From contig OZ076409.1 of NCBI GenBank assembly GCA_964187785.1, positions 2,792,001 to 2,856,000 of the forward strand: a stretch of DNA of 64,000 nt. Reading direction: 5' to 3'. The notes under the pieces are model-generated. The model was not told the DNA's origin, did not search any database, and was given only the letters and a program-made list of their open reading frames with translations. This DNA comes from Amphiscolops sp. MND2022. Its lineage: Eukaryota. Position numbers and translations under genes: made by a program. Positions 61,758-64,000 of the stretch are shown here, in pieces (position 1 is the stretch's first letter; each line of letters begins with the position of its first letter).

Positions 61758-62769
61758 ATCGAATCTCTTTTTGAATATTTTCTTCGCTATCTTGAAAGAA
61801 TTTAGTGGTTTTCAATTCAGAAATGATTGAAGAGGACGGCTGAATTCAAGAATGAAACTGAGAGGAATGGCGGATTTATTTCCGACAGACCGTGAGTCTC
61901 TTCGTTTCGTTTTTCCCGGGGTTCCACTACCTCTCCAAGTAATAACTTCTCGACAACAAAATTCTTCCTTTTCGAATTCTTTCATCAAGCCGCAGAGTTG
62001 CTTTGTAATTGTCGGCGCCGCCTTAACTATCCATCAACACCTAAGTTAACACTTCTAACTTAAGAGCGCGGTCTCGAGTGTTTATTAACACTCATCAGAT
62101 ACTTGAGGATTTCAAGTGGGTGAAGATATGACGATCAGCCACGCCGTCCACCATCAATATGCTCAGCCAATAAGAAAGCAGCAAAATTTCTCCCAAGCTA
62201 ACATGGCTTCTCAAGGTCGCGAACCCGTATAAGGAAATGATATAAAATGACCTTGAAAATAATATAAAATAAAATAAAGCAAGATAAAATCATGAAATAA
62301 TTTTGTAAAATACCAAAGTTTTCGAAATAAATAAAGGAAATGTAGATATCGCTGGCAGACTCTATCCACATAATGCCGTAAAATGTAAATAACTGTAAAT
62401 TTGACACCAAACTGTATAGCCACGAACTCCAATCTTGACATCTTGTCACATTGCTGATTCGCCTTTTCAATTCTTTTACATTCAATTGCAGTCGTATTAC
62501 TCTTTCTTCTTCGTATTTAATCACCAACATATTTATCCACTTTGTATTTAGTCACTTGTTAGTCTTTTAGTCGTGTTTATTTTATACATCTCTCCATTTC
62601 TCCATCCCACTTTCATCTTGGGACTCAGCGTCCACACGTCCCCATCCTCGTGAGATTTCTCGGCTTGGTCCATCCAAACGACATCCAGTCCTTATTTTGT
62701 ATTTCCCTCTCATCAACTCCAGCTTGTTGCCTTGAAGGAAGGAGTCTCAGACGTGGTTCATTGAGATTC

Positions 62770-64000
62770 ATGGCAGACTCAATCGACAATCCCTCCAGTG
62801 GTCAAAATCAAACAGGTCAGTAGACTTTAGGCTTCTTTTCGATTTGTTGAAAATGAACTAATTTGAGGTTTGATCAGGACTCTCGTTTCGTTCACGTACT
62901 TCCTGTCCAATAACTCAAGCATTCACTTGTGTTCAGATTTATCTACTTCCGGAAGATTTTAATGCGGTAAATGGATTCGTATTCAGGAAGAATTCCGCTA
63001 AATTTTATTTCCTTTTATTTAGGAATAACAACCGAAACCCAGGGCACGTCAGGCGTCCCGTCCGTGGATGACCGCCCAGGAGAGTCGGATCAAACAGTGC
63101 CAGGTAGTGTTACTACTACCAGTGAACCTCGTCCTCCTTCCAATTTCTCTGGCTCTAGTGTAGCCACTGAAGAGAGCCTCTCAACTTACGCCGAAAGGAC
63201 GATGAAGGCCATAATTGCTCGAGACCAACCTGGGTCTTCCGGAATCTCTGCTCTGCTTTCCTCACTAAACGAGCAGACTGAAGATACCTCTGGAGGAAAA
63301 GGTATTGAGCAGGGTCGGCCTGGCACTAGTTCACAAAAAGATGCTAAAGAAACGCATTGCACCAGTGTGGAGAAGGCCGTCTCCGGACAGATAGAAGAAG
63401 ATGATGCGAGCATAGTCAGCACTCCAGTCGTCGGTCGCTCAATCGATCCCGCACTGTACTACACTGACACAAGCGGCCCTGAGGACTTGATGGACAGCTC
63501 CGGCGTTGGTGGACCTGTCACTCCCCAATTTAAAAACATCCCAACCCTTGTCAAAGTTCCTAGACAGAGAGGAGAGTCAACTAGCGGGGATGAATCCTCC
63601 AATGGGCTTCCAGGGCCGAGTAACCAGCAGTCGAAGGCACCACGACAATTTTCTGCCAGTGGGAGGACTTTATTACGAAAACATTTCGTAGAGAAGGACC
63701 CAATTGTGATCCCCCGGAACCAGCCCGTTATTGCCCTTACTGAGAGCCAGATCCACACAGTCATGAAAACTATCTCGGACGAGACCATTTTATCTTCCTT
63801 CCACCTTATGAAATCTCTCCTCTTACAGGCCACGTCAGGGAAGGTTTTGACCAAGGAGAAGTGTAGGCACGTGGGTGGACATACTCCTGGGGGCAGACGA
63901 AGTCCCAGTAGCTCAGGAGATGAAACGACCGACGTTGATTCGCCCAATGAAGGATACACCAGTGGTGCTTTCAACACCGATGATGAGCCCGGTAGTTTAT
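62770..64000 (+). CDS. Two-exon gene (62770-62815 + 63023->64000), Ser/Thr/Gly/acidic disordered protein, antisense to the retroelement; 3'-partial
   Basis: ATGG start, donor CAG|GTCAGT, acceptor TTTCCTTTTATTTAG|GA, phase 1-1; exon 2 open ~325 codons to the window end (missed by the ORF track because it has no stop). Confidence 0.7.

Follow-up and report, generated by a model that had tools for sequence, protein, structure and literature searches.

Antisense additional ORFs are known from plant Retand-type retrotransposons and from some fungal elements; in the available text of the two papers that describe them their origin and role are given as open questions, and an origin from nested transposable elements is argued against for want of sequence likeness (PMC7264820, PMC11963269). 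In the Retand/Tat group (Grande gene23, RIRE2, Retand TRP28) the ORF lies antisense between the internal region and the 3' LTR, is multi-copy and is predicted to encode a nuclear DNA-binding regulator, and the same sources describe HTLV-1 HBZ as a nuclear protein whose antisense expression is driven by the 3' LTR (PMC7264820, PMC11963269). Invertebrate LTR elements also carry additions, among them the captured ORF3s of bdelloids, which are common to several element lineages (PMC5408684), and the env of Oikopleura Tor elements, which have internal promoters (PMC4402516); as these sources present them, such genes are env-like or enzymatic, and the accessible text of PMC5408684, PMC4402516, PMC8220671 and PMC12477816 contains no antisense transposase-derived gene. 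Subscription papers, Repbase and supplements aside, which may hold one, we found no spliced hAT-derived antisense ORF of an animal element in print.

Here we describe a locus at the right end of a 64,000-nt stretch of DNA (the window), in which a plus-strand gene, ORF-B, adjoins the polypurine tract (PPT) of a candidate minus-strand LTR retrotransposon, while a second frame, ORF-A, lies within the candidate LTR itself (Table 1). Similar to the Retand/Tat ORFs, ORF-B is antisense, would lie in the corresponding place next to the candidate 3' LTR, is multi-copy and is predicted to encode a nuclear DNA-binding regulator; unlike them it belongs to an animal host, multiple introns interrupt the gene in its family (the available text of PMC11963269 never uses the word "intron"), a resemblance of its product to a DNA-transposon protein can be traced, and a second ORF is present inside the candidate LTR. 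We take ORF-B to work like the plant antisense ORFs but do not class it as a member of the Retand TRP28 family, and a Pfam search of the window ORF and 28 relatives gave no match to Transposase_28 (PF04195). HBZ, a spliced bZIP protein of a retrovirus, resembles ORF-B in being an antisense protein, which in the case of ORF-B is by prediction also nuclear and driven from the 3' LTR; no sequence relation between the two was found and none was expected. ORFs inside LTRs are likewise familiar from MMTV sag and HIV nef, which ORF-A resembles in lying in the candidate U3 in the sense of the element. A sequence-only reading of this DNA had proposed a spliced accessory gene of the element rather than a nested host gene; the many copies of the gene, its splicing at the family level, its place just inside a PPT-TG junction like those of two complete LTR elements in the window, and the position of the host cadherin gene on the opposite strand support that proposal in part, although the product and the start it gave turn out to be incomplete.

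Results

A candidate LTR retrotransposon in a cadherin intron

The window is animal DNA, with cadherin exons separated by GT-AG introns on the minus strand, and the ORF-B locus falls within an intron of this gene on the strand opposite to it; strand also rules out 62589-64000 as a host cadherin exon. Two complete LTR elements of opposite orientation are separated by about 1 kb; they have target site duplications (TSDs) ATGGT and ATTAG and LTRs of 2.05 kb that are 99.5% and 99.8% identical within an element and ~97% identical between the two. Their gag match is weak (E 0.0054), with a likeness of just 79% between the two gag regions, and a second frame of 450-525 aa contains acidic repeats without a pol match. 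These neighbours have no DNA in common with the candidate ORF-B element. Elsewhere in the window we observe a LINE (51304-55207, plus strand) with ORF1 and an endonuclease-RT ORF2 interrupted by a stop and a frameshift, as well as RT, RNase H and integrase fragments in gypsy order (11663-13779, plus strand), the remains of an LTR element that has decayed within A-skewed sequence. Short repeats with CCATGATCTTG/CAAGATCTT palindromes, probably a MITE family, occur at 57130-57780, 32914-33005 and 41651-41745, and a further repeat family at 989-1370, 6069-6525 and 55870-56111. Rfam and tRNA scans gave no match.

Table 1. Positions of the features discussed, in window coordinates
Feature	Position	Strand	Remarks
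Cadherin exons	near 6650-6855, 41830-42150, 56670-56900, 58750-58940	-	
Complete LTR element 1	33310-41463	+	5-bp TSD
Complete LTR element 2	42471-50581	-	5-bp TSD
Candidate TSD ATTGT	59300..59304	+	one side only; partner copy would fall outside the window
Candidate 3' LTR	59305..62588	-	3284 bp; TGTA...TACA termini; right end fixed by the PPT-TGT junction
Candidate polyadenylation signal AATAAA	59922..59927	-	nine such matches on this strand in 59300-62800; putative role
Candidate LTR TATA box GGCTATAAATAG	60143..60149	-	one of five on this strand; putative role
ORF-A	60918..61757	-	single exon, 279 aa, within candidate U3
Candidate antisense promoter in LTR	62167..62247	+	CCAAT at 62167, TATAAAA at 62241; pattern scan only
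Polypurine tract	62589..62619	-	27/31 purines; directly precedes TGT at 62588
ATG exon of the sequence-only reading	62770..62815	+	46 nt; possible, unproven
Proposed intron	62816..63022	+	207 nt
Conserved in-frame 18-codon segment	62971..63024	+	begins with ATG; overlaps acceptor
ORF-B main exon, first part	63023..64000	+	disordered N-terminus and conserved helical patch (~63640-63850)

A scan of both strands of the whole window for a purine-rich 25-mer followed by TGT returned five matches, three of which are the junction at 62588 and the 3' LTR starts of both complete neighbours; to the remaining two (863 and 11072) no LTR is assigned. Because the same scan recovers both neighbours, the right end of the candidate LTR at the PPT-TGT junction, 62588, is well supported. 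We infer that the left end is at 59305 and that the LTR is hence 3284 bp long: this is one of 28 TGTA sites within 57000-62500, and was chosen because the density of A/T runs drops from 2-10 to 0-3 per 400 bp at ~59200, the runs that end near this point being host-like. Between these ends a pattern scan finds TATA and AATAAA matches in U3-R-U5 order, neither of them unique. The candidate U5 contains a perfect 68-bp tandem duplication (59555-59693).

When 62588 is considered instead as the edge of a plus-strand 5' LTR, no TGG-type primer site follows it, unlike in the neighbours, and this orientation was rejected. ORF-B is antisense to the PPT strand and next to the PPT; ORFs of the aORF-3R class are antisense, lie between pol and the 3' LTR in most copies of an element and are transcribed from an antisense promoter of their own. 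The best reading of 62589-64000, and part of the best explanation for the locus as a whole, is that an LTR retrotransposon on the minus strand, located in the cadherin intron, has its 3' internal end here. A minus-strand frame of 179 aa in this part (63459-63998) had no Pfam match, and within the window neither pol nor a second LTR or second TSD copy is seen, which counts against this reading. Searches for related DNA gave 17 pattern matches in viral contigs, 43 and 172 in metagenome contigs and, with the ORF-A alignment only, 54 matches in prokaryote genomes, none of which was confirmed.

The ORF-B gene model and splicing in the family

The exons described by the sequence-only reading are present, with an ATG at 62770, a 46-nt exon ending at the donor 62816 (CAG/GTCAGT), a 207-nt GT-AG intron, an acceptor (TTTAG/) at 63022 joined in phase 1, and a frame that stays open to the window end for 341 codons in total (325 full codons in exon 2). 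The ATG, given as about 180 bp inside the PPT, is 182 nt from the LTR edge at 62588 and 151 nt from the inner PPT end. With respect to splicing, the acceptor at 63022 is conserved in the family, but the 46-nt ATG exon and its donor are not established. Chance alone yields an in-phase ATG exon with a comparable donor in 12% of resampled sequences (247 of 2000), and the 46-nt exon had no match below E 5.6 among 572 proteins. An alternative 56-nt intron (62967-63022, GTAAAT...TTTAG) is possible, and an ATG at 62971, within the proposed intron, likewise starts an uninterrupted stretch of this frame. The ATG exon at 62770 is thus possible as one of three ORF-B starts. A three-exon model using 62937-62966 was discarded, as it places a stop in frame with the ATG at 62770.

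The 18-codon segment at 62971-63024 forms the N-terminus of 43 of 231 family proteins (23 distinct variants), identified with a pattern that fixed six positions, a looser pattern adding no proteins. It comprises the last 52 nt of the intron, and its conservation, which extends across distant subfamilies, lies in the 5' half. A hairpin was considered as the reason for this conservation and rejected (z -0.63 to -0.01); on the minus strand the segment contains two AATAAA motifs. At residue 18, which spans the acceptor, 23/23 distinct variants have G, D, E or A, preceded by L, S or I at residue 17, and since the codons for G, D, E and A have in common only their first base, G, the AG at 63022 is conserved. 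Directly after the acceptor 35 of 43 relatives have Met where the window copy has Ile, so the window copy may not be working; in 8 of the 23 variants the downstream Met is absent, and these need a start further upstream. At the next donor, where the big exon ends, Val is found in 38 of 41 variants and Val-Ser in 33 (six shorter segments left out), which fits GTAAGT-type donors, and in relatives the RNase H-like exon ends at a third boundary. All of these sites were read from the protein sequences of unspliced gene calls, which run into introns. As the acceptor at 63022 and the downstream donor are conserved across the family, ORF-B is spliced at the family level. In one relative, P0091, the protein runs on without a gap over the site of an intron of 65-75 nt in others, pointing to the loss or gain of introns in the family.

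A multi-copy family with a longer product

A search with exon 2 yielded 188 representatives at E<=0.001 (50% clustering), and a word-based search 37 ORF-B clusters, the closest of which (P0151) is 88-89% identical. Clusters of near-identical copies have 7, 15, 21 and 25 members, many members are truncated or frameshifted, identity across subfamilies is 30-40%, and those members that were looked up are all from ENA and none is named. At the protein level, ORF-B is therefore not single-copy but belongs to a dispersed multi-copy family of the kind by which LTR retrotransposons are recognised, in keeping with the element gene that had been proposed.

The product had been described as low-complexity with a single ordered patch. 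S, T, G, P, E and D are its six commonest residues and the patch is present, however the protein is not merely low-complexity. The highest conservation is that of the patch (modal frequency 0.58 at residues 226-250, versus 0.23-0.47 in the other twelve blocks), which folds as two confident helices in the predicted model of P0091; two copies of the helical patch taken together scored 0.01. Comparison with relatives indicates that the window encodes no more than the beginning of a longer protein, which beyond 64000 would continue with PPRKRRK-like basic motifs (NLS-like), a zinc finger and a helical region. The finger (C-x2-C-x16-H-x5-H, with an upstream Trp) occurs in 54 of 231 family proteins, its region having a pLDDT of 79-98, and after another intron follows an exon predicted to form a helix, three strands, a helix and a strand, both in P0091 and in several separate gene calls.

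A probable hAT-transposase body

The order of finger, helical DUF4371-like region, three strands, helix and strand is similar to that of hAT transposases and of ZBED/FAM200 proteins. An Atlas search with residues 255-615 of P0091 gave DUF4371, FAM200-ZBED5 and ZBED1 RNase-like as the nearest clusters with a family, at a score of 0.92 and with 157 features in common (170 being typical of same-family matches). The strand motifs resemble what we take to be the hAT consensus, by which the first catalytic Asp would presumably lie after the conserved EF of strand 1; at this site Asp is absent from 15/15 distinct variants (12 Glu, 2 Ile, 1 Ala). The link to hAT comes from this one Atlas search of a partial protein together with the presumed consensus; we consider it likely that the ORF-B protein descends from a hAT transposase, and ORF-B would then be a probable dead transposase body, predicted to be unable to cut DNA.

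Other comparisons were less specific. Pfam returned no hAT or BED family for any ORF-B member, only sub-threshold C2H2 families (ZN292-like, not zf-BED, in 24 of 38 members). The topology of the RNase H-like exon model fits, at a mean pLDDT of 51.6. Foldseek gave no match at E<=0.001 for either predicted model, and in VIA-align the best Z for the first model (5.8) fell on plain helices, while the RNase H-like model reached a best Z of 4.4 with no hAT row, EndoV, UvrC and an Argonaute being at Z 3.0-3.4, on a par with unrelated rows. When three alignments were used to search PDB sequences, nothing fell below E 0.77. Apart from the missing Asp, ORF-B differs from hAT transposases in its long disordered N-terminus and extra helical patch, in that no inverted repeats are seen in the window, and in having no Pfam match; it is not classed as an active hAT transposase.

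ORF-A and its pairing with ORF-B

ORF-A has a family-conserved IIYISSDEEE motif, which we take to resemble a SUMO-interaction motif, and a CxxC helical C-terminal part. No Pfam family and no named relative were found for it (Atlas best 0.84), the Spin-doc finger being touched by 3 of 34 members at E 0.04. It falls into 100 clusters, the best being 95% identical with 66 members and others having up to 128 or 163, and 14 contigs carry one and the same ORF-A sequence. Summed, there are 1160 members in 100 clusters for ORF-A versus 103 in 37 for ORF-B, in searches that differ in sensitivity; an excess of ORF-A is expected of a gene that resides in LTRs and solo LTRs.

To compare their occurrence, contigs were counted as common to both ORFs when equal in length only. 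Among the matches listed, 24 contigs are in common between 222 and 178, and 4 of the 18 ORF-B contigs of 5-30 kb also have ORF-A. Both genes occur on ENA contigs of 13,303, 14,773, 24,632 and 28,167 bp. The overlap is uneven: among the matches listed, ORF-B is found on 10 of 15 contigs of ORF-A cluster P0270, including 5/7 contigs of ORF-B cluster P0151, on 7 of 124 contigs of the other eleven ORF-A clusters, and on 1 of 15 contigs of P0232, the cluster to which the ORF-A of the window belongs. Also among the matches listed, the partner of P0270-type ORF-A is a P0151-type ORF-B on six contigs and a 45%-identical P0013-type ORF-B on two, and the window combines a P0151-like ORF-B (88-89%) with an ORF-A only 54% like P0270. 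ORF-A and ORF-B hence seem to travel together, yet to be reshuffled between subfamilies.

Discussion

Taken together, these observations lead us to favour, with moderate confidence, the explanation that ORF-B is an antisense accessory gene of an LTR element that was derived from a nested hAT transposon and acts as a nuclear regulator. A hAT DNA transposon would have inserted backwards into the element near the PPT, and once captured it would have lost its ends and its catalytic site, with the finger, NLS and scaffold staying under selection. An antisense promoter in the U3 of the 3' LTR would drive a plus-strand transcript across the PPT, whose splicing, shown at the family level, uses the site at 63022 and involves at least two introns further downstream. 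Introns that run opposite to the genomic-RNA strand survive retrotransposition. The resulting protein, as judged from relatives, would consist of a disordered N-terminus, the helical patch, an NLS-like motif, the finger, helices and a beta-beta-beta-alpha-beta exon; a transposase body of this kind without the catalytic Asp could not cut, and would spread as cargo only. A non-cutting protein that nevertheless exists in many near-identical, intron-bearing copies needs a carrier, and an LTR element in the opposite orientation supplies both the carriage and the strand on which introns stay.

The protein would enter the nucleus, bind DNA via its finger and act in trans. Given that the rest holds, we see not quite an even chance that it raises transcription of the element or shields it from silencing; a role in tethering integration seems rather unlikely, and one exerted mainly through antisense RNA somewhat less likely again. 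ORF-A would be a second accessory gene, carried in the LTR, with the two modules exchanged between subfamilies. The discordant ORF-A/ORF-B pairings weaken a model of LTR-specific binding, and since LTRs are freely exchanged, a motif or host target common to the subfamilies is suggested.

Some of the same evidence could be read in other ways. ORF-B might be a passenger, that is, a hAT-derived DNA transposon that is non-autonomous, mobilised in trans and nested preferentially just inside such LTR elements, as its transposase-like body with introns, the discordant pairings and the low overlap of the window's ORF-A cluster (1/15 among the matches listed) would suggest; but a dead transposase that is kept open and conserved at 30-40% identity implies selection on the protein, and the subfamily-specific pairing (5/7 contigs among the matches listed) fits joint amplification, so that we hold this account to be improbable. 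A further reading takes up the giant DNA transposons with accessory genes described in the available text of PMC12477816. Here a single large DNA transposon, or another non-LTR element, would carry ORF-A and ORF-B as divergent genes, with the purine tract-TGT junction being coincidental, which agrees with their head-to-head arrangement (1.0-1.2 kb between starts), with the lack of a second LTR within the window and with the two of five PPT-scan matches (863, 11072) to which no LTR is assigned. Such an element would not be expected to show the roughly tenfold excess of ORF-A members, TGTA...TACA ends with a 5-bp flank resembling those of the neighbours, or the exchange of modules that is typical of reverse-transcribed elements, and its probability in our view is low.

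That ORF-B represents a domesticated ZBED-type host gene family, antisense in the cadherin intron beside an unrelated solo LTR, has a slighter probability still. Domesticated hAT genes typically have introns, a zinc finger and lost catalysis, all of which are seen here, and the Atlas gives ZBED-like clusters; however 188 representatives, with clusters of up to 25 near-identical and many truncated or frameshifted members, are hard to reconcile with a host gene, a PPT would not remain beside a solo LTR, and the linkage to ORF-A is repeated.

On the preferred reading of ORF-B as an accessory gene from a captured hAT transposon, one can speculate further, though we think it doubtful at present, that this is a large animal LTR clade, active recently, which is organised like a complex retrovirus from stolen transposon parts: a hAT-derived antisense multi-intron gene and an LTR gene with a SUMO-interaction-like motif, transcribed head to head from U3, their modules swapped between elements and their products serving as counter-silencing factors. 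If this were true, we would have here a direct example of a transposase domesticated by transposons of another class. The large and diverse ORF-B family makes the question of origin testable: its introns date the capture, the finger offers a binding assay, and the exchange of LTRs and cassettes shows what the ORF-B protein must recognise. Spliced, zinc-finger-bearing copies of this kind are also prone to annotation as host genes. The hAT likeness and the retained introns point to a nested-transposon origin of antisense extra ORFs, in this case in an animal, and if this is true ORF-B would show the source of such extra genes.
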